From: a virus
Taxonomy: Duplodnaviria; Caudoviricetes
Virus record (IMG/VR): IMGVR_UViG_3300011440_000004
Coordinates: 1 to 56,485 of that record
Length of the DNA: 56,485 nucleotides
Strand: one strand, 5' to 3'
Position numbers and translations under genes: made by a program. This document shows positions 1,242 through 53,040 of the stretch, piece by piece (positions within the stretch are counted from its first letter, which is position 1; every line of letters begins with the position of its first letter). Below the pieces are notes generated by a model, which saw only the letters and a program-made list of their open reading frames with translations, made no database searches and was not told the DNA's origin.

Positions 1242-1885
1242 GGTCGGGTTCTCCTTCTGTCGGGGCCGGTCAGTCGCACGACGACGGAGTCGTCGCCGGT
1301 CAGTCTCGACCACGCCCGGGGGCCGAGATGCGTGGCGAGCTCGTCGAGCGGCAGATTGGAGGTGATGACGGTCGGCAGCTCCGACAGCCAGCGCCGGTTG
1401 AGCACCGCGTACATCTGCTCGGCGGCCCACTCGGTGACGCGTTCGGTGCCGACGTCGTCGAGCACGAGCAGGTCGATCGACGACAACTCGACCGGTGACA
1501 GACCACCGTCGGGTCGCATCGACGACAGGGCCTCGACCATCGGCAGGAACATCACGGCGCGCCGGCCGTCGGTGATGAACGCCCGCGCCACCGCGAGCGC
1601 AAGGTACGTCTTGCCGGTGCCGACTGCGCCGAGCAGCGTGAGCGATCCGGTCGACCCGCCCACGACCCAATCCCTGACGGGTCGGGTGACGTCGGGGCCG
1701 TGGATGTCGCAGTGGCCGAGGTGGGCGTCGCGGAACCGGTCGGGTGCGCACGCACGCCAGCGGGTCTCGGCGACGGCGCGGGCCTGGTCGTGGCGCAGCC
1801 GGTCGGCGACGTCGAGATGGTCGATGTGGGTATCTGCCATACCGACCCACGGTACACAACCGGGGTTGACGACAGCAACGGTCAT
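1238..1885 (-). CDS. DnaC/IstB-like AAA+ helicase loader (alternative start at 1840, MADTH)
   Basis: Walker A GAVGTGKT, Walker B LLVLDDVG, TVITSNL and AWSRL motifs; directly follows the replication initiator. Confidence 0.85.
   Translation of the reverse strand: MTVAVVNPGCVPWVGMADTHIDHLDVADRLRHDQARAVAETRWRACAPDRFRDAHLGHCDIHGPDVTRPVRDWVVGGSTGSLTLLGAVGTGKTYLALAVARAFITDGRRAVMFLPMVEALSSMRPDGGLSPVELSSIDLLVLDDVGTERVTEWAAEQMYAVLNRRWLSELPTVITSNLPLDELATHLGPRAWSRLTGDDSVVVRLTGPDRRRTRP
1829..1878 (-). promoter_or_regulatory. MADT promoter/operator cassette, copy 1
   Basis: TTGCTG-tcgtc-AACCCCGGTT-gtg-TACCGT-8nt-ATGGCAGATACC. Confidence 0.75.
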
Positions 1886-2679
1886 GGCACCACGACGCCG
1901 CCGACGCCGGTGCGGTCGTCGTCCACCCGGCCGGGCGCGACGCGTGCCGGCCGGCCTCGGTCGGCGCGGCCGTCGAGGTGCGTCTCGATCTGCTGGCGGG
2001 TCAGCGTGCGCCCGGCCCGGTACATGTCGGCGAGGGTCTGTTTGACCGCGCCCGCGGTGTAGCCCGCCGCGATGAACGGTTCGACGAGCTTGGCGAGCGC
2101 CATGAACCCGATGCCGACAGGGACCTTGCCGGTCTGCTCGCGCACCCACTCCCAATAGTCGGTGGCGATGCGTCGAGCTTCATCGGCCGGCGTCGGCGCA
2201 GCCGGCGCATCTCCTTGTTGTTCTCCCACTGGAGCATCCTTAGATGCGGTCACCACGTGACCGGGGGCCTGGTCATGTCGTGACCGGGGCCCGGTCGTCA
2301 TGTGACCGGGGGCCTGGTCACCAGGTGACCGGGGTCGGCGTTCCCACACGTCGAAGTCGAACGTCACCCGCAGACGTTTCCCACCCTGCGATTGGGGCAC
2401 TTCGATGGTCTCGACGGCGACGATGCCGAGCTCGGCGAGAGCGGCGAGGGCGGTGGTGACCTTGCCGGCCGAGACGCCGGTGCGGCGTGCGATCGAGTTG
2501 CGGGTCACGTTGTCTTGGCAGTAGCCGTCGGCGTGCGATGCGAGCCAGCCGGCGATGCGCAACGCGTACGGGTCGATGGTCGTGTCCTCCCACCGCCAGT
2601 TCGGCACGACGGTGTGGCCACGTCGACCGCGGGAGATGATCCCGGACGGGCGTGGCGGGGTCGGTGAGCTAGCCTGCAC
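1882..2679 (-). CDS. Phage replication initiator (N-terminal wHTH, lambda O/DnaD-like organisation)
   Basis: GGAGG RBS before GTG; HTVVPN...TRNSIARRTGVSAGKVTTALAALAELGIV HTH; internal iterons; upstream of the DnaC-like gene. Confidence 0.75.
   Translation of the reverse strand: MQASSPTPPRPSGIISRGRRGHTVVPNWRWEDTTIDPYALRIAGWLASHADGYCQDNVTRNSIARRTGVSAGKVTTALAALAELGIVAVETIEVPQSQGGKRLRVTFDFDVWERRPRSPGDQAPGHMTTGPRSRHDQAPGHVVTASKDAPVGEQQGDAPAAPTPADEARRIATDYWEWVREQTGKVPVGIGFMALAKLVEPFIAAGYTAGAVKQTLADMYRAGRTLTRQQIETHLDGRADRGRPARVAPGRVDDDRTGVGGVVVP
2257..2334. repeat. Four iterons, probable replication origin
   Basis: GTGACCGGGG(GCCTGGTCA) at 2257, 2280, 2302 and 2325 (22-23 bp period) inside the initiator gene. 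Confidence 0.75.
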
Positions 2680-2760
2680 GTGACCTCCTGCATAGGTCGA
2701 TTGCCCTCGGTGCCGGTTCGTCGCCGGCACCGAGGGCGTTGTTCGTTCGGAGGCGGGAGA

Positions 2761-2982
2761 CTACACCTCGTCGACGGGCCGGCCGTGGAGCTGCCAGCAC
2801 GGGTGGGTCCCGCCGCCACGCAGACGTGTCGGGCTGAGCTGCACGAGACGGGTGATGACGAACTCGGCGCCGGCGCCGTCCGTCCACGTCTGCCCGGGCT
2901 CGCACCAGTCGCCCGGCGAGTGCGTGATGCACAACGCCCGGTCACGCGTCGGACGCCGGCGAGGGCGACGCCAGAACATCAC
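2761..2982 (-). CDS. Hypothetical protein
   Basis: GTGA overlap with the upstream stop; plausible codon usage. Confidence 0.55.
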   Translation of the reverse strand: MMFWRRPRRRPTRDRALCITHSPGDWCEPGQTWTDGAGAEFVITRLVQLSPTRLRGGGTHPCWQLHGRPVDEV

Positions 2983-4154
2983 GACCGCCCGTCGTCCGGT
3001 GGTGTCGTGGAATCGGCCGGATCGGGCGCCGTGGCCTCGCTGGGGGCGTCGTCGGCGGTGAGCCTGCCGATGCGCTCGTCGAGCCATTCCAGAGCGCCTG
3101 CGACCCTGTCAGTGGTCAATTCGGCCGGATGTGTCCACGCGTCGATGAACGCCCGCTTGAGACCACCACGCACCGCCTCGTCGGTGATGACCGAGAACCG
3201 TTCGGCGATCATCGCGACGGTCTCGGCGTCGACACGTTCCACACCCGAGTCGAGCCAGCCGGCGAACACCTGCGCCGGTTCGACCGACCGCCCGGAGGGG
3301 GCGACGATGTCGGCGATCAGATCGCACCGAGACTTCGACACGATCAGACGGTGTTCGAGGTCCATGTCGGCGACGACGGTGAACTCGTACTCGACGCCGG
3401 CGCGCTGCTCGGGGGCCATCCCAACCTTGGTCGGCACGCTGATCTTGCGACCGTTCTTGACCTCCTCGACGAGCACGTACTCCATCTTCGAGCGCATCGT
3501 CACGATCACGTGACACGGTGCGTGGATGATGGCGTCGAGCATGTCGCGCTGGGCCGGCGTGCCCTCTTTCCATCCGGTGAACGAGTTACCACGAGACGAG
3601 GCGTCGTCGACGATGTTGAGTGTGCCACCCTCGCCGGTCCAGAAATGCGTAAGCGAGTCGATGACGAGCACGCCGTCGGCGCCGAGCTCTCGACCGGCGG
3701 CTTGGATGAACTGGCGCAACGCCCGCGGATCGTACGGCGGCGGCCAGGGCAGGTGACCGAACTCGTACGGTGGGTCCCACCAGTTGAGCCGCTCGACCGC
3801 GACACCAGGCGTCGGCGCGTAGTAGGCGGCCGACCGGTTCTCGGTGTCGGCGAGACCGATGGCGCCGGTCGGGCCGGCGAGGATGCGCGCCCACTGCAAC
3901 GCGGTCCACGTCTTGCCTGATCCGGTCGGACCGTCGATGGCGACGCGGGCCTTGAGTTTCTCCTTGACCGCGGGGGCGAACAGCGACCGGGCGGTCGCCA
4001 TCGGCACGACCGGCGCGTCGGATGCTCCTGGAGGCGACGCGTCTTGTGCGGATCCACGTGACGCGTCGGGCTGAGCTGCGACCGACGGATCGTCGACCGG
4101 TAGCGGTGGTGCGTCGTCGGGGGTGTTCTCGACCGGGGCTCGGCGGGCGGTCAC
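2979..4154 (-). CDS. AAA-family ATPase (AAA_24/Sak4-like recombination protein); may start at 4001
   Basis: GPTGSGKT, DTENRSA, VLVIDSLTHFW, HVIVTMRSK and EYEFT motifs; adjacent to the Gam-like gene. Confidence 0.8.
   Translation of the reverse strand: MTARRAPVENTPDDAPPLPVDDPSVAAQPDASRGSAQDASPPGASDAPVVPMATARSLFAPAVKEKLKARVAIDGPTGSGKTWTALQWARILAGPTGAIGLADTENRSAAYYAPTPGVAVERLNWWDPPYEFGHLPWPPPYDPRALRQFIQAAGRELGADGVLVIDSLTHFWTGEGGTLNIVDDASSRGNSFTGWKEGTPAQRDMLDAIIHAPCHVIVTMRSKMEYVLVEEVKNGRKISVPTKVGMAPEQRAGVEYEFTVVADMDLEHRLIVSKSRCDLIADIVAPSGRSVEPAQVFAGWLDSGVERVDAETVAMIAERFSVITDEAVRGGLKRAFIDAWTHPAELTTDRVAGALEWLDERIGRLTADDAPSEATAPDPADSTTPPDDGRS
4012..4115. repeat. 24-bp-period GACGCGTC array A
   Basis: Units at 4012 GGCGCGTC, 4036 GACGCGTC, 4060 GACGCGTC, 4084 GACGGATC, 4108 GGTGCGTC. 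Confidence 0.65.
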
Positions 4155-17024: not shown

Positions 17025-17500
17025 AAGGGCGTGGCGTCGAACCGCTCGAACAGCTCGGCGGCCCCCTTGCGGCCACCGTCTTCGCGGGCGAGCTCGGCCT
17101 CGTGCGCCACCGCGGCGCGCGCGGCGTCGTCGCCGACCCATGCGGTCAGCTGGTCGAGGGTGAACTCGGTGCCCTTGTCGAACTCGAACGCGGCGACAGC
17201 ATCGGCGCGGGCGCGACGCTCGCGGTCGGCACGCTCGTCGTCGGTCTCGGTGTCGTCGGCTGCTGCGGCCGCGAACGCCTCGCCCGGGTCGGCGTCTTCG
17301 ACGCGCATCGCCCGGATCAGCTCGACGATGCGGGCGTCGGGTGCGGTCATCACGAGCTTGCGGTCGTCGTCGGAGACGTCGGACTCGTCGAACATGGCGA
17401 CGATGTCTTCGACCTCGCGGTCGTTGGCGCCGAGCAACCGCAGCCGGTCGAGGAACCCGGTCATTGGGTTGCGGATTTCAGGGGCAGAGCGGAATCCCAT
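17021..17500 (-). CDS. Hypothetical acidic protein
   Basis: C-terminal TLDQLTAWVGDD...AE...GRKG helical module. Confidence 0.6.
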   Translation of the reverse strand: MGFRSAPEIRNPMTGFLDRLRLLGANDREVEDIVAMFDESDVSDDDRKLVMTAPDARIVELIRAMRVEDADPGEAFAAAAADDTETDDERADRERRARADAVAAFEFDKGTEFTLDQLTAWVGDDAARAAVAHEAELAREDGGRKGAAELFERFDATPL

Positions 17501-18579
17501 CAGGTCGACCTTTCAAGTTGGACGATGAACTCGCCGGCTCGCCGGGAGGCGTTGCCGTCGAGATGAGCGTAGACGAACCCCGCGGCGGCCCGCCGCAAAC
17601 CTGCCGACGGGTCATCGTCGACGTAGGCGTCGAGGTCGATGGCACGCAGGGCGTCGGCGTCGTCGACCTGCCAGCCGGGGACGTGGCTCCAGAACCGCAG
17701 ACCATGTTCGACGTGGCGCCGATACCACGGTGCGTTGAGCGCCACGACCGGCCGGTCGAGGGCGGCCATCTCGTACATCAGCGATGTGTTGTCCGCGACG
17801 AGCACCGTGGCGTCGGCGAGGATGGCGTCCGCGTCGGCGACGACGTCGACGCCAGATCGAGCCCACACCGGCCCCAGGTGGCCCAGGAGACGAGGGTGGC
17901 CGTGGCCGACAACGTTCCACCCGGCCGCACGCCACGACGAACACAGGCCCCGCAGCGCCCATTCGTAGTGGCGCAGCGCCGATCCGGCCTCGGGGCACAA
18001 CGCGTTGGGCCAGTGGAACGTGACCGCGACCGATCTGTCGCCCCCAGCTCGGGCAGACGTGTCGCCGACCGGCAGGCGACACGTGTCGCTCGTCGACGAC
18101 GGTGACGCGTCGGATGTCACCACGGTGGACGCGTCGCGCACGACGTCGCCCGACGCGTCGTGTAGGACCTGGGCGAACCGGTCGAGCTTGGGGCATCCGA
18201 CCGCGACAGCCGCCACGCCCGGCCGGGCTCGACGCCACCGGTCGGCGACGGTCTCGGACGGGCAGACGTAGCCGACGACGCGCTCGGGATGGCGGGCGCC
18301 GCCACCCGAGTAGGCCTCGTGGTCGGCGCGGTCGACGTACACCTGGCCGGCGCCGTGCTCGACGTACACGAGCCGGCGGTGGTGAACGAGGCGGGCGACG
18401 TCTTGCCATGCGGCGACGACGGTGAGCCGGTCGGCGCGGTAGCGGTCTCGGGGGATGCGTTCACCCCAGCCGACGCCGTACGCCGAATAGAACTCGCCAC
18501 GGTCGGTCTCGGCGAGCGCGGCGTGGATCGGCGCGAGGTGCGCCGCGTAGTGCGGCATCGACGAGTAGAAGTCGATCAC
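17500..18579 (-). CDS. GT-B glycosyltransferase (CDP-glycerol glycerophosphotransferase-like)
   Basis: YVEHG, VGCPKLD, HGHPR, LVADNTSLMYEMAALDRPVV motifs. Confidence 0.7.
   Translation of the reverse strand: MIDFYSSMPHYAAHLAPIHAALAETDRGEFYSAYGVGWGERIPRDRYRADRLTVVAAWQDVARLVHHRRLVYVEHGAGQVYVDRADHEAYSGGGARHPERVVGYVCPSETVADRWRRARPGVAAVAVGCPKLDRFAQVLHDASGDVVRDASTVVTSDASPSSTSDTCRLPVGDTSARAGGDRSVAVTFHWPNALCPEAGSALRHYEWALRGLCSSWRAAGWNVVGHGHPRLLGHLGPVWARSGVDVVADADAILADATVLVADNTSLMYEMAALDRPVVALNAPWYRRHVEHGLRFWSHVPGWQVDDADALRAIDLDAYVDDDPSAGLRRAAAGFVYAHLDGNASRRAGEFIVQLERST
18032..18183. repeat. 24-bp-period GACGYGTC array B
   Basis: Units at 18056 GACGTGTC, 18080 CACGTGTC, 18104/18128/18152 GACGCGTC; degenerate flanks 18032 GATCTGTC and 18176 AACCGGTC. 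Confidence 0.85.
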
Positions 18580-19760
18580 CGGACGAGTTCGGTGAGCACG
18601 GCGCGCGCGACCGGGGGGCAGACGGCGTTGCCGATCAGACGCCACCGAGCTTCCTTGTTGCCGTGCAGTGCCGCCGGTGCGGCGGCGGGGAACGCCATCA
18701 GGATGCACCCCTGCTCCTCGGTGAGCGCGATCGGCTTGTCTGAGCCGGCCTCCTCAAACGGGACCGCGCCCGCTGATTGCGACCCGTCGTGATGGACGGG
18801 CGGCGATACGCGCGGGTCGGCACACACCGTCGTCGACGGGCGCGTGAGCGCCCACGACGCGTTCTCGGATCGAGTGAGGATCGTCGGCGCCGGTTCGCTC
18901 ATGTCTCGGGTCCCCGCCCGCGGTTGGTCGTTGGCGCTGAGAGACCAGCCCCACACGTTCTTACCCATCGCCGCGGCGGTGATCGTCGGGCACGGCCGCT
19001 CGTCGGGGTCGACCAGCGGCGCACCGTTCTGATGGCGGTCGAGCATCCATCGCCCTTCGCGCACGGCGGCGTCGACAGTGGCTCGCGCGCCCGACCCGCC
19101 GTCCATGCCGTGCCCCGACCCGGTCTCGGAATGGCCACGCAACGTCAGCGCAAGGCGATCGAGGAACCCCTTGCCGAGCGCTTCGGCCATCGACACCCAC
19201 GGCAGATGACCGAGCATGTCGGCGGGTTCGACCCGGGCGCGGCCCTTGCGGAACCGTTGATGCGTCAGCGGTGGCCGCATGACCGGACGGTCATGGTGGG
19301 CGAGCATGAACACCCGCAACCGGGTCTGCGGCACACCCATCGTCTCGGCCGAGACGGCGAACACTTCGGCGTGGTAGCCGACCTCACGCAGTCGGTGGGC
19401 TATCAACTCGTAGGCACCGCGGGCCTCGGGGACCTGCTCCAACGCCACCCACCGGGGTCGGGTCGCGAGCGCCCACACCAACGGCTGCCACACCAACTGG
19501 CCGCGCGGGTCGTCGAGACCTGCGCCCTTCCCGGCGCGCGACCACGACTGGCATGGCGGCGATCCGATCAGGCCGTCGATCCCAGCCCAATCCGACGGGT
19601 CGAGCGCGAGGATGTCGGCGCACGTCGTCGACCACCCCAACGCCTCGCGTGTCTTGGCGACGGCCGGTTCGTTGTCGATGCCGTGTTCGTCGATGCCGAG
19701 TTCGGCGCAGGCGAATCCCCATCCGATCCCGGAGAACAGATCGACGGCGTGGTCGGTCAC
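18576..19760 (-). CDS. DNA (cytosine-5)-methyltransferase
   Basis: DLFSGIG, GSPPCQSWS, LEQV, PQTRLRVF and IGNAV motifs. Confidence 0.9.
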   Translation of the reverse strand: MTDHAVDLFSGIGWGFACAELGIDEHGIDNEPAVAKTREALGWSTTCADILALDPSDWAGIDGLIGSPPCQSWSRAGKGAGLDDPRGQLVWQPLVWALATRPRWVALEQVPEARGAYELIAHRLREVGYHAEVFAVSAETMGVPQTRLRVFMLAHHDRPVMRPPLTHQRFRKGRARVEPADMLGHLPWVSMAEALGKGFLDRLALTLRGHSETGSGHGMDGGSGARATVDAAVREGRWMLDRHQNGAPLVDPDERPCPTITAAAMGKNVWGWSLSANDQPRAGTRDMSEPAPTILTRSENASWALTRPSTTVCADPRVSPPVHHDGSQSAGAVPFEEAGSDKPIALTEEQGCILMAFPAAAPAALHGNKEARWRLIGNAVCPPVARAVLTELVR

Positions 19761-19903
19761 AGCGGGACCGGGCAGTGTGTGGCGCAGCGCAGACAGACGA
19801 GCCTACGCCACCGGTCCCGCTGCGCAGTCGTCCAGTCGATGAGGGCGACCGACGGCCACCAACAGGTCTGGCATCGCAGACCGGACAGCTGCAGCGGGAT
19901 CAC
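19757..19903 (-). CDS. Small Cys-rich protein
   Basis: CQTC/CLRC; GTGA coupling. Confidence 0.5.
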   Translation of the reverse strand: MIPLQLSGLRCQTCWWPSVALIDWTTAQRDRWRRLVCLRCATHCPVPL

Positions 19904-20061
19904 GGCGTCGCCTTGTCGACGAGCCGCACGATGGCGGCCGACCACCCCTCCATGTCGGGGGTCCGGGCGAGGCGCAGCAGCTTGCGGAACTGGCGCTGCG
20001 TCATCACGACGGTGAGGCCGACGCGGTGGTCGTCGGCGTCGAGAACGACCGGCGCGGCCAT
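19900..20061 (-). CDS. Small protein, possible ribbon-helix-helix DNA-binding protein (not in ORF track)
   Basis: MAAPVVLDADDHRVGLTVVMTQRQFRKLLRLARTPDMEGWSAAIVRLVDKATP; coupled at both ends. Confidence 0.55.
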   Translation of the reverse strand: MAAPVVLDADDHRVGLTVVMTQRQFRKLLRLARTPDMEGWSAAIVRLVDKATP

Positions 20062-20198
20062 CAGAGCGACAGCCGCTCGACGGGCACGTGGCGCTCACAC
20101 GAGAACCACTGCTTGGTCGGGGTGTTCGGTCCGGTCGCGGTGGTGATCCGGGTGGCCGGGTCGTCGCAGCCGGGATGGTCGCAGAGCACCGGCCGCAT
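20061..20198 (-). CDS. Small zinc-binding-like protein (not in ORF track)
   Basis: MRPVLCDHPGC...CERH; TGATG coupling. Confidence 0.5.
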   Translation of the reverse strand: MRPVLCDHPGCDDPATRITTATGPNTPTKQWFSCERHVPVERLSL

Positions 20199-20464
20199 CA
20201 CTCGGCCTCGTCGTCGTGCTCGTCGAGCAGGTTCGCGACGTTGGCTGTGACGAACGTGCCGGCGTCGTCGTGCCAGTAGAGCAGGACGTCGGTGTGGTGG
20301 CCGTCGGAGAACGTGACACGCTCCAGCAGCCGGGTCGCGCCAGTGCGGTCATGCCATGCGGCCTTGGCCTCCGGGTCGTCGATATCGAGACCGACCGACT
20401 CCAGCCAGTCGTGCAGGTCGTTTTCGGTGTGGATCGCGGTGTCAGCGAGCGTGGTATCTGCCAT
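20198..20464 (-). CDS. Hypothetical acidic protein, MADT start
   Basis: Start directly follows cassette copy 3. Confidence 0.7.
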   Translation of the reverse strand: MADTTLADTAIHTENDLHDWLESVGLDIDDPEAKAAWHDRTGATRLLERVTFSDGHHTDVLLYWHDDAGTFVTANVANLLDEHDDEAE

Positions 20465-20500
20465 GCCGACCATGGTACACAACCGGGGTTAGGTAGGCAA
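20453..20500 (-). promoter_or_regulatory. MADT cassette copy 3
   Basis: TTGCCT-acct-AACCCCGGTT-gtg-TACCAT-7nt-ATGGCAGATACC. Confidence 0.8.
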
Positions 20501-21529
20501 GGTGGCGTCGTCGAGCGCGGACCACCACACGTCGGCGAGCGCGTCCCACGTGTTGGCCTGGCCCCACTCCCACGCCCGATCTTGCAGCGCGCCGAGCTCG
20601 GCGCGGTCGGTGCCGAGACGGTCGATGGCGGCGGCGATCGGCTCGGCTCGGACGCCGGCGGTCTCGACGACACCGCCGGGCATCTGGAGCTGGCCGAGCG
20701 GGGCGGCGTCGAACAGGTCGACGGGCCACCAACCGTTCGCCGTGATGGCGGGCATGGACGCGGCGACACCGACCGACATCGCTTCTTGGACCGGCAGGCA
20801 CAGACCGCCGTAGCGGCGCGGCATCATCAGCAGGTGGGCGCCGGCGAACATGTCGAACCGGTCGTCGACGCCACCGCAGTGCACCCGCAGGTTCACGTTG
20901 CCCGGCACCGGCCCCAGGTCGAGGGTGCGTTCCTGCGTGTAGACCCGAACCGTGACATCGATCGACACACGACGCAGCGCCCGCGCGAGTGCGTTGGTGC
21001 CGTTGCGGTCATGTTGGCAGCGATGCCCGAGGGTGTGAACGACGGTGAGTTCGCCGTCGTCGGCGGGCCGGTTCATCGGCGCCATCGCTTCGACCGGGAT
21101 CGGCACGACCGGCCCGGCGGGCAGATGGTCGAGACGCCACGGTGTGGGCCACCACCACCGCGTCGGTTGCGGCCAGCGCCGGTTCATCGCGTGGCGCCAA
21201 TACTCGGGCATGCCGTGCACCACGGTGGCGACGCCGGCGTCGCGGGCCCAGTCGGCGAGACGCCAGTCGTACAGGGTTTCGGCCGAGTAGACGACGTCGA
21301 GGCCGTCGAGCCACGCCCGGGCAGCGGTCTCGTCGAGGCGGCCGGTCGTCCAGATGTCGCACCACAGCCGGGTGGCGTCGGGGTAGCGGTCGAGATGGTT
21401 CGGCACCGCGGTGTTGCGTGGCTCGTAGTCGATGACCGCGACGCGGTCCCACGGCAACGCCTGCGACGCGGCCCACGTGATGTGGCCGAGACCGCGGTCC
21501 TCGGCGCGTGCGATCAGACCGGCGCGCAT
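20489..21529 (-). CDS. Glycosyltransferase (GT4-like)
   Basis: ARAEDRGLG, VVYSAET, DRNGT, MPRRYGGLCLPVQEAMSVG motifs. Confidence 0.8.
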   Translation of the reverse strand: MRAGLIARAEDRGLGHITWAASQALPWDRVAVIDYEPRNTAVPNHLDRYPDATRLWCDIWTTGRLDETAARAWLDGLDVVYSAETLYDWRLADWARDAGVATVVHGMPEYWRHAMNRRWPQPTRWWWPTPWRLDHLPAGPVVPIPVEAMAPMNRPADDGELTVVHTLGHRCQHDRNGTNALARALRRVSIDVTVRVYTQERTLDLGPVPGNVNLRVHCGGVDDRFDMFAGAHLLMMPRRYGGLCLPVQEAMSVGVAASMPAITANGWWPVDLFDAAPLGQLQMPGGVVETAGVRAEPIAAAIDRLGTDRAELGALQDRAWEWGQANTWDALADVWWSALDDATLPT

Positions 21530-21756
21530 CAGCCGGCGACGCCTTCGCCGCACCAGTCGCCCTCTTGCATCTGCGGCCACACCTGCGTCACCCGTTCGTC
21601 GTCGACGGTGGCCACGAGCGACGGCGGGAACCGGTGACATTCGAGCACCGGTGCCTCGTCGTCGGTGCCGCGCCCGATGAACGCGGGCTCGGCGAACACG
21701 CAGTCGACGCACAACACCCGCACCGGCGGCCGGCGTGCCGGTCGGAGCTCAGCCAC
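21529..21756 (-). CDS. Small Cys-rich phage protein
   Basis: CVDC...CHRFPP...WP...DWCGE. Confidence 0.65.
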   Translation of the reverse strand: MAELRPARRPPVRVLCVDCVFAEPAFIGRGTDDEAPVLECHRFPPSLVATVDDERVTQVWPQMQEGDWCGEGVAG

Positions 21757-23479: not shown

Positions 23480-23489
23480 CGCCGAGACG

Positions 23490-23645
23490 CTACCCGTCGT
23501 CGCGCTGCAGGCGAGACGTGTCGTGTTCTGCCGGTGTGACACGACGCGTCTCGTCGACGAGGTCGTCGATGACGTCGGCGGCCTCGCGCATCGTCCACGG
23601 CCGATTGAAGTAGTTGCCGGCCTCGGCGCGCAGACGTGCCGCCAT
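23490..23645 (-). CDS. Possible short hypothetical protein
   Basis: Fills the gap; its C-terminus overlaps GACGYGTC units. Confidence 0.3.
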   Translation of the reverse strand: MAARLRAEAGNYFNRPWTMREAADVIDDLVDETRRVTPAEHDTSRLQRDDG

Positions 23646-26963: not shown

Positions 26964-29503
26964 GGCGCCCTGCGTGCGGTCAGGTCGACGGTGGCGGCGC
27001 GCATGGTGGCGAGCGTAGCGCTAGCGGCGGGTCGGGTCGTGAGGTCGGCGTCGTTCGCGACGCGCGTTGACAACACGACGTCGCCGATGACGTTGGGTGC
27101 GCCACCCGTCGTCGTGAGCGTGCCGGTGCCGGTGATCGTGCCGGCGAGACGCTTGAACACGGCGCGGCCGACCACGCCGAGCGTGGCGATGGTGCCGCCG
27201 GTGCGCTTGGCGGTGGCGCGCCGCACGAGACCGGTCGGGGTGATCGACCCGGCGAGGGTCAGCATGAACGTGAGCGAGCGCACCACGACACCAGTCGGTG
27301 TCACCTGGCCGGCGAGACGCTTGAACGTCGACCGCCGCACGAGACCGGCGGCGGCGGTGCTGCCGGCGAGACGCTTGCCGGTGGCTCGCACGACGCGGCC
27401 CGTCGCGGTGATCGTGCCGCCGATCGTGAGCAGGAACACGGTGCCGAAGTCGACACCGCCTGTCGGAGTGATCGACCCGCCGACCGTCTTGAACGCGGCG
27501 CGCACCACCCGCCCGGTCGCGGTGATCGAGCCCGCGAGCCGTTTCATGGATCCGCGTGCGACGCGTCCGGTGGCGGTGATCGTGCCGGCGAACGCCTTGG
27601 CGATGGTGAGGCGTGGGTCGCCGGCGGGCACGACGGAACCGGCGAGACCCTTGGTGGTGTGGCGCACCGCCCGCCCGGCCGGCGTCGATGTCCCGGCGAG
27701 GCGTTTGGTGGTGGCCCGGCGGATCACACCGGCGGGCGTCACAGTGCCCGCCAGCGTCAGCATGCGCAGCAGAGACGCCGCCAGGGTGCCAGACGCGGTG
27801 GACGAGCCCTGGAGCGTCTTAGCCGTGCGTCTGATGGCGGCCCCGGTCGCCGTCGACGACCCGAGCAGCCGTTTCGTCGAGCTGCGCACGACACGTCTGG
27901 TCGCGGTTACCGTCCCGGCGAGGGTGCGGAACTGCGTCTTGGCCCGCGTCAGGGCCCCGGTCGGTGTCGAGGTGCCGGCGACACGCTTGCCGGTGAGGCG
28001 ACGCACCACCCCGGTCCCGGTCGACGACCCGCCCCGCGTCTTGGCCGATGCCCGCACGACGCGGCCGGTGCCGGTGACCGACCCGGTCACCGTCTTGAAG
28101 TTCTCGACGGGCCCCCCGGCGACGGCTCGTAGCCGCACGAACAGCGCCGGCCCGCACTGGTTGGTGGTGGTCGTGAACGCCAGCGCGAGCGCCACGGTGC
28201 CGGTGCCGGCGGTGACCTTGGCCTCGAACAGTTCGATGTTGCCGTCGTCGCCGGTGCCGACACCGGCCCCCGACGTCAGCCGGGTCGTGGGCCCGAACGT
28301 GATGCCTGACGCTGTGATCGCGGGCGAGGTGATCGTCAGCGACGTGTCGGTGTCGACGGCGACGGCGACCACGACGACGTCGTCGACGGCGAGCGCGGTG
28401 TTGGTGGATGCGGTGATGGAGCGGTTGGCGCCGTGGGTGGCGTCGTCGCCGGTCGAAGTGGCGATGTCCCACGTGTCGGTCGGGTCGTCGAGCTGGTAAG
28501 CGACCATGATGCCGAGACAGCCCGGGGTGGTCCCGCCGGTCTGATCGAACGTGACCGACCCCGATTCGGTCCCGGCGACGGTGTCTTTTGAGTCGCCGCG
28601 AATCTCGGTCGTGTGGTTGTCTGCCGCGGTGCCGGTGCCACCGGCGAGACCGCCGAGTGACGTCCATCCCGTCTCGTTCGACATCACGATGTCGGATTCC
28701 CAGCCGACGCGGAAGGCGAAAATCTGATCGCCCGCTGCGAGGCCAGTCGGATAGGCGATGCTGACCGTGGTGGTCCCGCCCGCCGACTTCGCCCCGACCG
28801 CGACCCGGCTGACCGGCGGCAGGACGACGGTGCCGAGTGCGGGCACCGCGACCTGTGCGCCGACGCCCTCGTTGGCGGCAACCGAGACATCGGCCGTCTC
28901 GGTGACGGTGCCCGTCGCCGACGTCGTCAGATCCTTGGTCGAGAGCGAGCCACTCGCCGAGTCGTTGTCGAACCGGACCCGGTTCGTCCATCCGCCCGTC
29001 GTCGACGTGAACCCACCGAACGGGGTCTTGGCGGCGAACATCGCGACGCCGAGGCATTCGTCGTACGGCGGCGTGAGCGTGATGGCATCGACGCCGGTGC
29101 CTGCCGAACCGTCGAACGTCAGCGTGTAGTCGACGCCAGCGGTTGCGCCGAGGCCGGTCCAGATCGGAGCGTCGACGTCGAACGTCCCCGCCTCGACCCG
29201 ACAGATGGCTCCAACGCGCTCACCGCCATCGTTCATCGTCCACGCGAACGACGGCGACGCCGATGGTGCGATGAGCGTGTAGATGCCGGCGACCGGGCTG
29301 TTGCCGATGATGATTTCCGCGACGGTCACCCACGGCGACGGCGGCGTCAGATCAGCGACTGACCCGAAGAACCCGCCGTGATTCAACACCAACGCGATGA
29401 GACCGTCGCCGGTCGCCACCGACGCCGGTGCGGTGACCGTGAACGTGGTCGAGCCACTGAACTCGGCGTCAGCTGAGGCCGACCCGAAGGTGGGGACGGC
29501 CAC
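26960..29503 (-). CDS. Large structural/fibre protein with C-terminal 18-20 aa repeats
   Basis: Two beta-rich domains then about 18 KRLAGxxTxTGxVxR repeats. Confidence 0.7.
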   Translation of the reverse strand: MAVPTFGSASADAEFSGSTTFTVTAPASVATGDGLIALVLNHGGFFGSVADLTPPSPWVTVAEIIIGNSPVAGIYTLIAPSASPSFAWTMNDGGERVGAICRVEAGTFDVDAPIWTGLGATAGVDYTLTFDGSAGTGVDAITLTPPYDECLGVAMFAAKTPFGGFTSTTGGWTNRVRFDNDSASGSLSTKDLTTSATGTVTETADVSVAANEGVGAQVAVPALGTVVLPPVSRVAVGAKSAGGTTTVSIAYPTGLAAGDQIFAFRVGWESDIVMSNETGWTSLGGLAGGTGTAADNHTTEIRGDSKDTVAGTESGSVTFDQTGGTTPGCLGIMVAYQLDDPTDTWDIATSTGDDATHGANRSITASTNTALAVDDVVVVAVAVDTDTSLTITSPAITASGITFGPTTRLTSGAGVGTGDDGNIELFEAKVTAGTGTVALALAFTTTTNQCGPALFVRLRAVAGGPVENFKTVTGSVTGTGRVVRASAKTRGGSSTGTGVVRRLTGKRVAGTSTPTGALTRAKTQFRTLAGTVTATRRVVRSSTKRLLGSSTATGAAIRRTAKTLQGSSTASGTLAASLLRMLTLAGTVTPAGVIRRATTKRLAGTSTPAGRAVRHTTKGLAGSVVPAGDPRLTIAKAFAGTITATGRVARGSMKRLAGSITATGRVVRAAFKTVGGSITPTGGVDFGTVFLLTIGGTITATGRVVRATGKRLAGSTAAAGLVRRSTFKRLAGQVTPTGVVVRSLTFMLTLAGSITPTGLVRRATAKRTGGTIATLGVVGRAVFKRLAGTITGTGTLTTTGGAPNVIGDVVLSTRVANDADLTTRPAASATLATMRAATVDLTARRAP

Positions 29504-34280: not shown

Positions 34281-34412
34281 GTGGGTGTCTCCTACGTGAT
34301 GACGGATCGGGAGTGGTGGTGCGGCCTCCCGGTGGAGACGTGGACCCGACTAGGGCGGGACGCTCAAACCTTGGCCTTCGGGCGGGACGTTACAGGATCA
34401 GCGCGCGCCGTG

Positions 34413-34444
34413 CACGCGTCTCGTGTCGATCGACGTCACGTGTC
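34413..34444. repeat. Two CACGYGTC units 24 bp apart upstream of the capsid gene
   Basis: CACGCGTC 34413, CACGTGTC 34437; candidate -10 TAACGT at 34392-34387. Confidence 0.4.
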
Positions 34445-36065
34445 AGACGGCGGCCTCGGTCTCGCCGAGCATGATGCGGGCGGCGAGGTGGTCGCGTTCG
34501 GCCGGGATCAGGTGCCGGGTGCGCCGGTCGATCGCAGACACCATCGCGAGCACGCGGTCGATCCGGTCGTCGCTGCGACCGTTGCGCGCCGACAGCCGCT
34601 TGCCGGCGGCGGGCCGGTGGTCCTGGCCGCACGCCGAGCAGTGCACCATCCCGGACGCGACGAGCGCTTCGACACGCGCCGGGGCCGGGCGCACGATGCC
34701 GATGCCACGCATCGCGATGACACGGCCGTCGCGCACGGTGATGCGCGGCAACGGGTCGGCGAGTTGGATGCCACCGGCGGCGACGAGACGCTGGCGGGTG
34801 ATCGGGAACCCGGGAAGGTTGCACGATTGCAGGCCGAACATGTCGAGCTCGTAGTCGCCCCACTCGCGCCAATCCCCCGACACCCCGGACGCGCGCAGCA
34901 CGTTGACGGCGTGCGGTGTCACGTCGGCGCGCACGACACCGGAGAACCATCCGCCGTTGCGGCCGTTCGACGCACGCACCGACGCCCACCCGAGCGTGGT
35001 GTTGGCGTAGTGGTCTCGGGCCTGCTGCGCGGTGATGCCGACGAGCGGCGCATGGTCGAGGCCGTACACGAGGGTGCCGACCGGCGGCCCACCCGGCGAC
35101 GGGTTGGCGTGCAGATTGAAGTTCGCGTAGTCGGTCGGCGACGACGGCGCGGTGCGGCACTCGTTCGGGTAGCCGATGTGGCAGGCGCCCTCGGGGTAGA
35201 TGTGGCCGTACACGTGGCGCCAGCCTGCGTCGTCGCCGTCTTCGATCGTGAGCGGCACAGCGATGCCACCGGTCGACAACTGCGGCACGTTGCGCGGGTC
35301 GTCGTCGGGTGGTTCGGTCATCGTCGAGTATTCGAGCCGCGCCGGGCGCGGTGTGACGGTGATCGTCCCGGACGCCGCGACGGGTTCTGCCGATGCGTCG
35401 TCGTCAGCTGCGTCAGACGGCTCGGTGGTCGACGCGGCGGCGGGGTTGCCGAGCTCGATCCATGCGGTCTCGAACCCGGGGAACGGTTCGGCGGTCATGC
35501 CGGCGATGTCGTATGTGAGGAACCACGTCTCGGCCTCGATGCACCACCCGTCCTCGTCGACCTCGGTGCAGCGGTCCTCCCATGTGACCGCGCCCGGGTC
35601 GACGGACACACCGAACCGGCCCTGCGCCACGAGGACGTCGCGCAGTGCGCGGCCGGCGTCGGAGTCGTGGAACCATCCGGCCGAGAACGGGGTGCCGTTG
35701 ACGACGGTGTTCTCGTCGGCCCAGCCGGCGAGCACGGCGCCGATGTGCTGCCAGTCGGAGACGTTGTGGAACATCAGCGGCAGCGGGCCATCTCGGAACG
35801 TCCAGACGCACTCGGAGAAGTCGCGGCCGTCGCCGGTCGGTTCCTGCAACGCGACACCGTTCGGACCGGAGACCCAACGCTCGGCGAGTGCACCCTTTGG
35901 CGCGGTCGCGAGACGTGCGGCGGGTGGTGCCATCGCGGCCATCGTGGCGAGCTGGCCCCCGACGAAGACGAGGCCTTGCGTGTAGTCCGGGAACGTCGAC
36001 AGCACCGTGCCGGCGGCGTCGACGACTTCCCACTGGCCGGACGAGTTCTGGCGGATGGTGAACAT
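34443..36065 (-). CDS. Capsid maturation protease
   Basis: TGDGR.F...PLPLM...H..A...GVSVD...VYGH...SGDWR...NLPGFP; upstream of the MCP. Confidence 0.8.
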   Translation of the reverse strand: MFTIRQNSSGQWEVVDAAGTVLSTFPDYTQGLVFVGGQLATMAAMAPPAARLATAPKGALAERWVSGPNGVALQEPTGDGRDFSECVWTFRDGPLPLMFHNVSDWQHIGAVLAGWADENTVVNGTPFSAGWFHDSDAGRALRDVLVAQGRFGVSVDPGAVTWEDRCTEVDEDGWCIEAETWFLTYDIAGMTAEPFPGFETAWIELGNPAAASTTEPSDAADDDASAEPVAASGTITVTPRPARLEYSTMTEPPDDDPRNVPQLSTGGIAVPLTIEDGDDAGWRHVYGHIYPEGACHIGYPNECRTAPSSPTDYANFNLHANPSPGGPPVGTLVYGLDHAPLVGITAQQARDHYANTTLGWASVRASNGRNGGWFSGVVRADVTPHAVNVLRASGVSGDWREWGDYELDMFGLQSCNLPGFPITRQRLVAAGGIQLADPLPRITVRDGRVIAMRGIGIVRPAPARVEALVASGMVHCSACGQDHRPAAGKRLSARNGRSDDRIDRVLAMVSAIDRRTRHLIPAERDHLAARIMLGETEAAV

Positions 36066-45958: not shown

Positions 45959-46759
45959 TCAGGCGTCTTGCGAGTACTCCGACGACGCGTCTTGGGGATC
46001 CCGCTGTGACGTGTCTCGGTCGACGTCGAGCGACGTGTACCGGTCCCATGCGCGGGCGACGCCACCGGAGCCGGGGAACAGGTCGTCGAGGGTGTCGCCC
46101 GGGAGGGCGCCGAGGAGGTCGAACAGCCAGTAGCAGAACTCTGCGGGTTTGGTGCCGATGACTCGGCCGGGGTCGGTCGTGCGAGGTCCTGAGCGACAGA
46201 TCAGGGCGTCGTAGCGGAACGACCCGTCTCGTGGTGATGACGTAGACGTGTCGGCGGCCGCACTGAGCGACGGCCGACCCCGGTGGTAGATGACGGGCTC
46301 CCACGTCGAGATGGGCCAGCGTGCCGTGGCGTGTGGCCGGGGGCGACGGAACCATGCGGCGACTCGGACGTCGACGCCGGCGAGAAGCGACAGCACCATC
46401 GGCAGCGCCCTGGCGCTCGTGGAGAGGGCCCAGCCGTCGGGGTATCCGGTCGTGAGCTGCTCGACGAGACGGGGGTGGTCGACTTCGCCGGCGTAGTCGG
46501 GGTGGTCTCGGTAGAGGTGGGCGTTGGTCGGGTAGGGCGGGTCGGCGTAGGCGAACGTCATCGGTTGAGCGGCGTGGGCGCGGGCGATCGCGCCTTGGCC
46601 GAATCGGTGTGAGGCTTGGCGGCAGCGCTGGCCGCAGAACCGGGCGTCTCGGCGAACCGTCGGGCCGAGCTCGCCGCGACACCAGGCGCAGCGGCGCACC
46701 CCGGTGAGCATGTCGATGACATCGGGGGCGACGTCGGTGAACGTGACCTCGTAGGTCAT
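45959..46759 (-). CDS. DNA amino-methyltransferase (DPPY type) with N-terminal Zn finger
   Basis: CAWC...FCGQRC; YADPPY; GTKP; DLFPGSG. Confidence 0.8.
   Translation of the reverse strand: MTYEVTFTDVAPDVIDMLTGVRRCAWCRGELGPTVRRDARFCGQRCRQASHRFGQGAIARAHAAQPMTFAYADPPYPTNAHLYRDHPDYAGEVDHPRLVEQLTTGYPDGWALSTSARALPMVLSLLAGVDVRVAAWFRRPRPHATARWPISTWEPVIYHRGRPSLSAAADTSTSSPRDGSFRYDALICRSGPRTTDPGRVIGTKPAEFCYWLFDLLGALPGDTLDDLFPGSGGVARAWDRYTSLDVDRDTSQRDPQDASSEYSQDA
45960..46039. repeat. 24-bp-period array C
   Basis: 45960 CAGGCGTC, 45984 GACGCGTC, 46008 GACGTGTC, 46032 GACGTGTA; a further pair at 46221/46245. Confidence 0.7.
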
Positions 46760-51415: not shown

Positions 51416-51450
51416 ACCCGAATCGTACACAACCGGGGTTAGCTAGGCAA
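51404..51450 (-). promoter_or_regulatory. MADT cassette copy 6
   Basis: TTGCCT-agct-AACCCCGGTT-gtg-TACGAT-6nt-ATGGCAGATACC. Confidence 0.8.
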
Positions 51451-53040
51451 GGGGAAGTCGTGAGCTTTGCTCGTGCGTTCCAGCACCGGCCGGTCGCCGA
51501 ACGTCGCCTGGTAGCGGGCGCAGACCACGTCGCAGTACCCGCGGGATGCTTCGATGCCGATGCCGACGCGGGACTGCTGCGCAGCTGCGATGATCGTCGA
51601 CCCCGACCCGACGAACGGGTCGAGGATGACGTCGCCGACGTCGGTGTAGGCGCGGATGAACCACGCCGGCAGCCCGACCGGGAACGCCGCGGGGTGGCCG
51701 GTCGCGGTGTGGGTGCCGGCGAACGTCGGCAGCCGGTTGCCGGGGTAGGCGAGACCGACCGTCTTGAACTCGCCGACGTCGTTGTGCCCGGTGCCTTGAT
51801 GCGCCTCGCTCGTGCCGGCGCCGGGTACGCCATGCTTGCGGCGTCTCGGTCGGATGTCGTCGGGCAGCGCCGACGTGTGACCTTGGCGCCCCTTCCACGA
51901 CGTGTTGCCGCGACCCTTGCGTCTGGCGCGTTGGCCGTCGAACAGGTCGCCCGACTGGCCTTGCGACACGACCGCCGAGTCGGGGTCGGCCCACGACGTG
52001 TTGCCGCGGCCGGGCCCGAACGGGATGATGGCGTCGTCGGTCGGATGCCTGACGTTGTCGGGGCGCACCTTGGGGCGGCCTCGCACGAACTGGTAGACGG
52101 GCTCAAACTGATTCTTGAACCGGTGCACGACCTGCTTGGGCACGCCGGTGCGTTCCCAACAGAACTCGGTCAAGAAGTGCCAGCCCCACTCGCGGACGTG
52201 GGCGATGACGAGGTCCATGACGTACAGGTCGGTGTCGAGGTCTCGGCCGGGCGGTTTGATGTTGACGAACCACGACCCGTCGTCGGCAAGCACCGCGGCG
52301 ACGTTCGCGGCGACCGGCGCGAACCACTCGACATATTCGTCGGGCGGTATCGGCGTGAACCCTGACGTCTTGTCGTAGTCGCGTTGCTCGGCGTACGGGG
52401 GAGACGTGACGGCGATCGCCACACGACGCCCGGCGACCGCGGCCTCGACGACGGAGGGGTCTCGGCAGTCGCCGCACACGAGCCGATGCTGGCCGAGCAG
52501 CCAGACGTCGCCGACCTTGGTGCGCGGCCTGGTCGGTTTCGGTGGTGCCGGCGGATCGGGTGGTGCGGGAGCGGGGACGAGCGAGGCGAGCATGTCGTCG
52601 AGACCGGCCGACGTGTAGCCGATGCCGTCGAGACCGGGCCCGGCGCGCAAGTCGTCGAGCATGTCGGCGAGGTCGGCGACCATCCACCCGCCGCGCTCGC
52701 CGATGCGGTTGACCGCGATCAGAGCGGCGCGTGCTTCGGCGTCGTTGCGTGAACGCCAGCCGCGCACGACCGGGAGCTGCCAGACGCCGTCGACGACGGT
52801 GATGCCATCGGGCGGTCGCTCGCCGGCGGCCTCGGCGGCCTTCAGTCGGTCGAGGCGGCCATGCCCGGAGATGAGCCGGCCGGTGCGTTCGTCGAGCACG
52901 GTCGGTTCGATCACACCGAACCTGGCGAACGATGCGTCGAGGTCGTCGTCGGCGTGGGCCTTGGGGTTGCGCTTGGCCGGCAGGACGTCGCCGAGCGGGC
53001 GGTACTCGATCGTGCGCACGGTTGGGGCTCGCGGTGCCAT
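51439..53040 (-). CDS. ParB-N-terminal-domain / N4C-N6A DNA methyltransferase fusion
   Basis: NPKAH...ISGHGRL (ParB-like); LVCGD, TSPPY, HPAAFP, DPFVGSGST. Confidence 0.88.
   Translation of the reverse strand: MAPRAPTVRTIEYRPLGDVLPAKRNPKAHADDDLDASFARFGVIEPTVLDERTGRLISGHGRLDRLKAAEAAGERPPDGITVVDGVWQLPVVRGWRSRNDAEARAALIAVNRIGERGGWMVADLADMLDDLRAGPGLDGIGYTSAGLDDMLASLVPAPAPPDPPAPPKPTRPRTKVGDVWLLGQHRLVCGDCRDPSVVEAAVAGRRVAIAVTSPPYAEQRDYDKTSGFTPIPPDEYVEWFAPVAANVAAVLADDGSWFVNIKPPGRDLDTDLYVMDLVIAHVREWGWHFLTEFCWERTGVPKQVVHRFKNQFEPVYQFVRGRPKVRPDNVRHPTDDAIIPFGPGRGNTSWADPDSAVVSQGQSGDLFDGQRARRKGRGNTSWKGRQGHTSALPDDIRPRRRKHGVPGAGTSEAHQGTGHNDVGEFKTVGLAYPGNRLPTFAGTHTATGHPAAFPVGLPAWFIRAYTDVGDVILDPFVGSGSTIIAAAQQSRVGIGIEASRGYCDVVCARYQATFGDRPVLERTSKAHDFPLPS

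Follow-up and report, generated by a model that had tools for sequence, protein, structure and literature searches.

A phased palindrome array in the linker of a phage glycosyltransferase

What keeps a short palindromic word at an exact 24-bp interval within the coding sequence of a phage glycosyltransferase (GT), with a different sequence in every gap? The question is raised by the viral record IMGVR_UViG_3300011440_000004, a tailed phage genome of 56,485 bp that was analysed over its whole length (hereafter, the window), has a G+C content of 69.8% and is classed by its source as a complete viral record with direct terminal repeats. Nearly all genes lie on the minus strand, including the GT gene at 17500..18579 (-), which harbours at 18056..18159 a core array of five 8-bp units in exact 24-bp phase, separated by unrelated 16-nt spacers. 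We find that the core word, GACGCGTC, is conserved as DNA, and that phased arrays of it are associated with a family of DNA methyltransferase-like genes; they may be cis-acting sites for a dimeric DNA-binding protein.

On the plus strand the units are GACGTGTC at 18056, CACGTGTC at 18080 and GACGCGTC at 18104, 18128 and 18152. The original prediction, made from the sequence alone, had described five GACGYGTC units at an exact 24-bp period with differing 16-nt spacers. The period and the spacers are as described, all units from 18056 to 18152 lying 24 bp apart; four of the units match the consensus, while the one at 18080 (CACGTGTC) deviates from it by one mismatch and forms a 14-bp palindrome with its flanks (GCGACACGTGTCGC). 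Degenerate flanking units had also been proposed on either side. The one at 18032..18039 (GATCTGTC) is plausible as a decayed sixth unit, since it has 2 mismatches and reads D-R-S in register, whereas that at 18176 has 3 mismatches, belongs to a GCPKLD-RF motif conserved in the GT family and lies outside the insert. The minus-strand translation of the array, DAS GDVVR DAS TVVTS DAS PSSTS DTC RLPVG DTS ARAGG DRS, displays the predicted D-[AT]-[SC] every 8 residues, and this D-[AT]-[SC]-x5 peptide lies in the interdomain linker, between GCPKLD and VAVTFHW. Tandem Repeats Finder reports a period of 24 with 2.4 copies and 76% matches; similarity over the whole length of the units, as in coding tandem repeats, was not found, the cores being exact and the spacer identity at random level.

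The GT product (359 aa) matches the Pfam family Glyphos_transf (PF04464) with 29.3 bits against a cut-off of 22.1, and an alignment of 27 sequences reveals the conserved two-domain core of the family with 34 invariant columns; by score and core it is a predicted TagF-like glycosyl/glycerophosphotransferase. The start of its gene overlaps the stop codon of an upstream C5 DNA methylase gene (GTGA). Relatives are mostly 313-340 aa long, and the segment from GCPxLD to TVAxTFHW is highly variable in length: delimited by regular expressions for these landmarks (n = 100), it has a median of 19 residues and a range of 1-108, and is 54 residues long in the window. Among the 120 family members listed, the window's own protein alone has D-x-S pairs spaced by 8 or 10 residues, and the nearest homolog (52%) has no array. 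The array is therefore, as far as these sequences tell, a lineage-specific insert in an insertion-tolerant linker and not a feature of the GT family. A comparison of unit number between homologous GTs, suggested with the original prediction, comes to nothing for the same reason. Megablast of positions 17400-18800 against the phage collection gave no match, a search of viral contigs with the GT protein led to no confirmed relative, and the best match of the window's TerL among isolated phages is about 30% identical.

The phasing is not a product of chance within the gene. Codon-order shuffles, which the original prediction had named as a check, produced a chain of at least 5 units or at least 4 pairs at lag 24 in 0 of 2000 trials. 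Over the window, there are 18 exact GACRYGTC positions (GACGCGTC, GACGTGTC and GACACGTC), and among their pair distances of up to 120 bp, 24 occurs four times, 48 twice, and 72, 96 and 28 once each. With one mismatch allowed (183 sites), lag 24 accounts for 10 pairs and lag 48 for 5, every other lag for at most 3. When all 8-mers of the window are ranked by the number of self-pairs at any one lag, GACGCGTC comes first, with just 9 copies. The word shows no overall excess in the window, with 27 matches on both strands versus 41.3 +/- 8.7 after shuffling. When the GT gene was resampled with synonymous codons (2000 trials), at least 4 exact cores appeared in 1.3-1.9% and a chain of at least 5 units with up to one mismatch each in 20-26% of the trials. 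The GCG or ACG middle codons noted in the original prediction are present in all five units, and the excess over what the peptide itself predicts is modest in the GT gene alone; the middle codons of all arrays in the window are NCG in 12 of 13 cases (background 0.343, P 2.3e-5).

Recurrence of the architecture in actinobacterial mobile DNA

Viral contigs scanned for three GACGCGTC separated by N16 yielded 8 loci: five (four distinct) with unique spacers, two ordinary tandem repeats and one cluster of inverted repeats in non-coding DNA. A scan of prokaryotes with one genome per species for three GACGCGTC at 24 bp retrieved 69 loci, mainly from Actinomycetota and Myxococcota. Most (56) are ordinary tandem repeats, whose spacers are identical at 12 or more of 16 positions; L052 and L078 are intermediate (10.3 and 11.0 of 16), L030 is a shifted repeat, and 10 loci have unrelated spacers as in the window. 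In the window and these 10 loci, spacer likeness is at random level (about 5-9 of 16) and the cores are exact. The architecture, a constant (C)GACGCGTC(G) with unrelated, palindrome-rich spacers, thus recurs in actinobacterial phages, prophages and conjugative-element-like loci.

At the loci with unique spacers, the array mostly sits in the N-terminal tail, an internal loop or the C-terminal tail of homologs of a 266-aa protein that the window encodes at 45959..46759 (-), and all five viral records with such arrays (the window and four others, G001-G004) encode a homolog of it. Arrays are also found outside this gene. At one bacterial locus, an element with further genes for a membrane protein and an FtsK/TraB-like protein, 12 units immediately precede the methyltransferase-like gene, and in one viral contig 7 cores lie in the intergenic gap that separates a tape-measure gene from the tail gene after it. 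Unit number differs between related genes, from 0 to 12. The spacers are kept among related prophages, for example one bearing GCGGCCGC and one bearing GGATCC; a blastn-short search for the source of the spacers, comparing five arrays with the collected loci and the rest of the window, returned only core-centred or chance-level matches.

The pattern scans also bring up other forms of the word. In L043, L050, L058, L075 and L082, from unrelated high-GC genomes, the same 8-mer occurs as ordinary 12-bp tandem repeats (GACGCGTC plus 4 nt), which surface as period-24 matches. In the viral locus L105, the C-terminal tail of the methyltransferase-like open reading frame (ORF) contains three [GT]ACGTGTCGCG-type units 24 bp apart, and the first of them lies inside a conserved SGGVSRAW motif, so that a core may coincide with protein sequence that is both structured and conserved.

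A methyltransferase-like gene family carries the arrays

The 266-aa protein has no match in Pfam, PHROG or NCBIfam, yet it belongs to a large family (6886 of 8000 scored candidates at E <=1e-10), for whose members a few sources give names such as 'DNA methylase' or 'Zn ribbon protein'. It combines a putative Zn ribbon with the beta-class motifs DPPY ... FPGSG, and the residues D73 P74 P75 Y76 and P229 G230 S231 G232 are invariant. The predicted structure has a mean confidence (pLDDT) of 71.4, and the best Foldseek matches of this model are the N6-adenine DNA methyltransferases M.RsrI, M.BceJIV, CcrM and M1.HpyAVI, with E values of about 3e-6 and TM-scores of 0.43-0.48; a profile search of PDB gives weak support at the level of sequence (E 0.38). 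The product of 45959..46759 thus has the motif order and, in the model, the fold of a beta-class amino DNA methyltransferase. The segments of this protein to which the window's arrays map, residues 165-185 and 248-266, are predicted with pLDDT below 50.

We assembled a gene-anchored sample of 80 viral loci, collected by peptide patterns of the 266-aa family, which avoids ascertainment by the DNA word. Core density in this sample is 1.69 per kb in the methyltransferase-like ORF versus 0.088 per kb in the flanks (up to 20 kb), a 19-fold difference. A chain is present in 27 of the 80 loci, and 27 of 29 chains fall inside the gene match or no more than about 100 bp away from it. At the protein level, one or more pairs at a distance of 8 or 10 residues are seen in 67 of the best 120 homologs. 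The genomic surroundings vary: among 37 ORFs scanned downstream of a family member we found five integrases, two TerL, four Rep-like proteins and one lysin, the rest being mostly matchless, and in Actinoplanes and Nonomuraea elements the array-bearing gene lies between a single-stranded DNA-binding protein (SSB) gene and a primase-polymerase gene. Since the neighbours are so heterogeneous, the array travels with the methyltransferase-like gene and not with a module.

Conservation of the core and of its spacing

Flanking bases extend the core to a 10-bp palindrome, CGACGCGTCG: among 81 in-ORF cores, C precedes in 69 and G follows in 68, with a weaker GCG on the 3' side. A symmetric preference for G at -9 and C at +16 (75% each) defines a second dyad centre, 12.5 bp from the centre of the core. 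The spacers are themselves rich in palindromes, 65% of 54 distinct spacers containing a perfect palindrome of at least 6 bp, compared with 25% of 5280 control 16-mers; for at least 8 bp the proportions are 28% versus 7.5%, and for at least 10 bp 13% versus 2%. In the gene-anchored sample, cores are separated, centre to centre, by 24 (29 pairs), 48 (19), 72 (10), 54 (10), 23 (7) and 22 (7) bp; such spacing resembles a slightly jittering ruler of some 24 bp, at times 30, more than strict helical phasing.

The codons were counted in the 60 distinct methyltransferase-like ORFs of the gene-anchored sample. D-A-S is encoded as GACGCGTCG in 53 of 72 occurrences; its alanine is GCG in 65 of 72 (background 0.405, P 1.2e-18) and its serine is TCG in 61 of 72 (background 0.417, P 6e-14), AGC and AGT being used in none. 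At the loci found by the word, the triplets that had not been ascertained give 16/16 for both GCG and TCG. Homologs that keep the peptide with variable codons, which would have spoken against the original prediction, are thus not what is seen. Nor is the core tied to a single frame: 63 of the 81 in-ORF cores read D-A-S, 11 read x-T-R-x and 7 x-R-V, leaving 18 outside the D-A-S frame. Without closing the ORF, individual loops change frame from unit to unit at spacings of, for example, 22, 23, 28 and 26, and one locus has 7 cores in a single open frame at spacings of 22, 23, 28, 26, 24 and 24. In the best 120 homologs, residue gaps of 8 (135) and 10 (27) predominate, and the middle residue is A in 225 cases, P in 63, V in 46, T in 42 and G in 41. 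The reverse-complement variants are therefore about balanced, D-P-S (63) with D-G-S (41) and D-V-S (46) with D-T-S (42).

The core word is thus kept regardless of reading frame or coding status. Because the codons are fixed, cores occur in other frames, reverse complements are balanced and some arrays are non-coding, a constraint at the level of DNA is the only economical reading of their conservation, in agreement with the original prediction, which had seen here a DNA-level element and not a peptide repeat.

Further clusters in the same genome

The window holds six clusters in all, the GT array and five more, at least one of which is non-coding. These five were no part of the original prediction, and neither was the link of the arrays to a methyltransferase gene family. 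Two belong to the methyltransferase-like gene itself. A three-unit array at 45984..46039 (45984, 46008 and 46032, at 24 bp) lies in its C-terminal tail, directly upstream of terS; it reads YTS LDVDR DTS QRDPQ DAS SEYSQ DA* and has GGATCC in one spacer. A two-unit cluster at 46221..46252, with GACCCGTC (46221) and GACGTGTC (46245) on the plus strand 24 bp apart, falls in an internal low-confidence loop. At 4012..4067, GGCGCGTC, GACGCGTC and GACGCGTC follow each other at 24 bp (4012, 4036 and 4060) in the N-terminal tail of an AAA_24 ATPase gene, 2979..4154 (-), as DAS RGSAQ DAS PPGAS DAP, again with GGATCC in one spacer. A pair with one mismatch per core at 34413..34444 (34413 and 34437, 24 bp apart) has GTCGATCGAC in its spacer, begins in the stop codon of a protease-like gene, 34443..36065 (-), and is intergenic, before the major head gene. 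At 23515..23550, a 14-bp imperfect inverted repeat has as its arms two cores (23515 and 23543, 28 bp apart), which a putative 51-codon ORF translates in different frames, as E-T-R-R and D-T-S. This ORF (MAARLRAEAG...), at 23490-23645 (-), lies between two larger genes, and the imperfect hairpin with core-word arms lies within it. In addition, a lone composite GGATCC-N6-GACGCGTC is found at 27548..27567, an arrangement that also occurs in array spacers of the window and of related elements.

Some features of the genome around these clusters deserve mention on their own. GGATCC has 3 sites in the window (4050, 27548 and 45996) versus 23.65 in shuffles, all within 12 nt of a GACGCGTC core. Other 6-bp palindromes are strongly avoided relative to a Markov expectation: CTCGAG (0 versus 35.8), TGATCA (0 versus 16.6), ATCGAT (1 versus 10.9) and AACGTT (1 versus 8.0). 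We considered and rejected the idea that the arrays are restriction-site polylinkers: they contain 22 six-bp palindromes versus 9.6 expected from their density, 7 of these are the core's own ACGCGT, and the spacer palindromes are too diverse to be tied to one enzyme. A possible expression signal for the major head gene consists of two copies of CGTCCCGCCC about 28 bp apart at about 34352-34390, shortly downstream of the two-unit array in the gap that separates this gene from the protease-like one. The region 17500-23542, between head and tail genes, is occupied by three genes of glycosyltransferase type, including one with a fused FkbM methyltransferase domain, and by the C5 DNA methylase gene; glycosylated virions are known among mycobacteriophages. 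The window encodes three DNA methyltransferase-type genes (18576..19760, 45959..46759 and 51439..53040).

Possible function and alternative explanations

We favour, at roughly even odds (about 0.5), a reading in which the arrays are cis-acting sites recognised, and possibly methylated, by a dimeric DNA-binding protein, most likely the methyltransferase-like protein of 45959..46759. Phased sites for a DNA-binding protein acting cooperatively were one of two inferences in the original prediction. The other was that the array may be the footprint of an element adding 24-bp units; unit number does vary between related genes, but the spacers are kept among related prophages and no source of them was found in the collected loci or the rest of the window. 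The element would consist of (C)GACGCGTC(G) copies about 24 bp apart from centre to centre, alternating with weaker, variable GC-rich palindromes in the spacers. Each core would be the site of a symmetric, dimeric DNA-recognising protein, and the sites of an array would be occupied multivalently or cooperatively. The Zn-ribbon, beta-class N6-adenine/N4-cytosine methyltransferase-like protein would bind these sites and probably methylate them, and they would serve it as a clustered epigenetic or regulatory mark. Within genes, the array would be tolerated in disordered tails or linkers only, mostly in the benign frame GAC-GCG-TCN, whose by-product would be the D-A-S-x5 peptide; here, the element would also have settled outside the methyltransferase gene, including in the insertion-tolerant GT linker. 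Possible roles of occupied arrays are autoregulation, a methylation-state switch or a nucleation site. A more far-reaching version, speculative and in our view rather unlikely, is that a Zn-ribbon methyltransferase family of actinobacterial phages and conjugative elements writes, both into its own gene and, in this phage, into unrelated ones, phased arrays in which its palindromic target alternates with other palindromes. The arrays would then be an in-ORF epigenetic register or nucleation centre that senses methylation, controls maintenance or expression of the element, and grows or shrinks by whole in-frame units of about 24 bp.

Several points weigh against recognition by the methyltransferase-like protein. 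Co-location is the one line that leads to this candidate partner. No clade with a different core, such as co-variation of protein and site would produce, was seen in the 60 ORF regions, where a de novo count of 8-mers returned the same word and its extensions ACGCGTCG and CGCGTCGC, the other recurrent 8-mers coming from conserved coding segments. Simple same-face cooperativity is not implied by the spacing, since 24 bp is a non-integral number of helical turns and jitters by 1-2 bp. The codon evidence from the GT gene alone is modest (P 0.013-0.019), and 78% of in-ORF cores share one frame, as a peptide function would also predict. The presence of at least 2 cores in 25 of 38 ORFs with an N-terminal C-x2-C ... 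C-x3-C-RQ ribbon versus 1 of 24 without it (Fisher test, 7.8e-7) speaks for this protein, but the correlation is confounded by phylogeny and G+C, as the Zn-less ORFs are more distant relatives from loci of somewhat lower G+C. Finally, 13 of the 38 ORFs with the ribbon contain at most one core, and 53 of the 80 viral loci lack a chain; the arrays are therefore dispensable for the gene.

One alternative is that the arrays are iterons of a replication origin or recognition sites (pac) of the terminase. Origins inside coding linkers are known from the lambda O gene, as are clustered methylation sites in the P1 pac site, and here one array ends about 40 bp upstream of terS, another (in the AAA_24 gene) belongs to the replication module, about 1.3 kb upstream of the replication-initiator gene in the direction of transcription, and the SSB and primase-polymerase genes flank the array-bearing gene in the Actinoplanes and Nonomuraea elements. 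This explanation is nevertheless improbable given six dispersed clusters in one 56-kb genome and, elsewhere, arrays that follow the methyltransferase-like gene regardless of its neighbours. Moreover, the window has a separate set of classical iterons: four exact GTGACCGGGG at 2257-2334, at intervals of 23, 22 and 23 bp and all accompanied by an inverted partner close by (CCCCGGTCAC..GGTGACC, minus strand), inside the gene 1882..2730 (-) annotated by PHROG as 'replication initiation protein' (phrog_270). The initiator gene is the classical place for iterons, and this set is a candidate lambda-like origin. A functional peptide, in the form of a disordered D-[AT]-S-x5 linker or tail motif selected for instance as a modification or docking site, would account for units that are always in predicted disordered tails, loops or linkers, for the prevalence of the D-A-S frame and of gaps of 8 and 10 residues, and for the ease with which synonymous resampling of the GT gene yields one-mismatch chains (20-26%). 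We give it a small chance only, as codons are fixed far beyond usage, 18 of 81 cores are in other frames, arrays occur between genes, V/T and P/G are balanced as reverse complements, and the enrichment of spacer palindromes would be meaningless for a peptide.

Structure in RNA or single-stranded DNA, with self-complementary cores pairing into hairpins that affect mRNA stability, termination or the pace of translation, is comparably improbable. Neighbouring cores do pair as 8-9-bp stems in minimum-energy folds, the pair at 23515-23550 makes a 14-bp stem with one mismatch, and the intergenic viral array of 7 cores is more stable than all 200 shuffles (z -3.44); the GT array, however, is not unusually stable (z -1.14, with 25 of 200 shuffles folding as well), the motif and its variants are strand-symmetric, and the spacer elements are mostly loop-less perfect palindromes, typical of duplex recognition. 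We regard as still less probable a neutral origin by tandem duplication or slippage of a 24-bp unit that has since decayed in a tolerant region. The period-24 signal at 76% matches, the linker of 1-108 residues in GT homologs and the ordinary tandem repeats at 56 of 69 bacterial loci would fit such a history, but exact cores between random-level spacers in the window and 10 bacterial loci, the same core in unrelated genes and non-coding DNA, and its conservation across a family of thousands of proteins would not. A miniature CRISPR-like array, an analogy drawn in the original prediction, is hardly credible. The constant repeat with unique spacers is alike, but the analogy fails on lengths, with repeats of 8-10 bp (versus roughly 23-50) and spacers of 16 bp (versus roughly 26-72); the arrays are in frame inside genes, the spacers matched only cores in the collected loci and are kept between related prophages, and the Pfam matches of the 60 phage ORFs (57 + 3) include no cas family, as the prediction had itself stated.

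Comparison with known systems and significance

The closest precedent for in-ORF palindrome arrays appears, by analogy, to be the sps/spdA system of Streptomyces plasmids, where a 12-bp palindrome, sps, occurs 2-3 times inside spdA and is read as SRDD/E-X3-8-SRDD/E, or is found upstream of spdA in some plasmids; SpdA2 binds sps, and synonymous removal of sps lowers plasmid stability (Thoma et al., 2014, PMC4170104). Both systems have a short GC-rich palindrome that is repeated in a coding region of actinobacterial mobile DNA, is conserved as DNA across divergent elements, gives a periodic peptide motif and is sometimes displaced to non-coding DNA upstream of the gene. The palindrome is likewise repeated in or next to one gene family on mobile DNA here, as the 19-fold density and the pairs in 67 of the best 120 homologs indicate. 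The words differ (CGTCACGTGACG for sps versus CGACGCGTCG here), and so do the copy numbers (2-3 versus up to 12); neither a 24-bp phase nor palindrome-rich spacers are reported for sps. The sps host gene encodes a small DNA-binding protein that binds sps, whereas the host gene here encodes a methyltransferase-like enzyme that would bind the cores, and the arrays also enter unrelated genes (the glycosyltransferase and the ATPase).

Other systems share part of the arrangement. Iterons lie inside coding sequences in the lambda ori, within the O gene linker, and in the P4 ori/crr octamers; these too are phased short dyad repeats in a tolerant gene linker, sometimes in more than one cluster. They are found in or next to the initiator gene in one or two clusters, unlike the six clusters of the window with their variable neighbours and its separate iteron-like set; the arrays are thus not confined to a single locus in or beside an initiator gene. 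Clustered methylation switches, such as the GATC clusters in oriC and in the P1 pac site or the GANTC sites in the ccrM leader, also pack a short palindromic word into a small, partly coding region; there, proteins read the targets by their methylation state, and the modelled fold of the candidate partner matches CcrM-type beta-class enzymes. The regular 24-bp spacing and the palindromic spacers set the present arrays apart from these switches, and the cores are a candidate target of the enzyme. In the clt loci of Streptomyces plasmids, asymmetric 8-bp repeats are the recognition sequences of TraB, an FtsK-like translocase. There as here, an 8-bp word is repeated, partly in a gene, in actinobacterial mobile DNA, and one related locus has an FtsK/TraB-like gene nearby; unlike such plasmids, the window is a tailed phage with TerS and TerL, and its Pfam matches include no FtsK-like gene.

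A full-text literature search for the 8-mer and the 10-mer, with subscription journals thinly covered, returned only primers and control oligonucleotides. We thus found no description of the word or of the arrangement, which appears akin to in-ORF palindromic binding-site repeats and to clustered methylation targets. It is set apart from both by the regular 24-bp phase, the alternation of constant and variable palindromes, arrays of up to 12 units, the methyltransferase-like host gene and, in this phage, the spread to unrelated genes. As the D-A-S-x5 'repeat' is dictated by DNA, caution is advisable in analyses of protein repeats and disorder in high-GC genomes.

If the favoured reading is true, a conserved cis element would be hidden in the coding sequences of thousands of genes in actinobacterial mobile DNA, annotated as 'low-complexity tails'. 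It would offer a handle on the target and role of an unstudied methyltransferase family, on the placement of regulatory DNA by phages and conjugative elements whose genomes leave next to no room between genes, and on the way in which arrays enter further genes, among them this glycosyltransferase.

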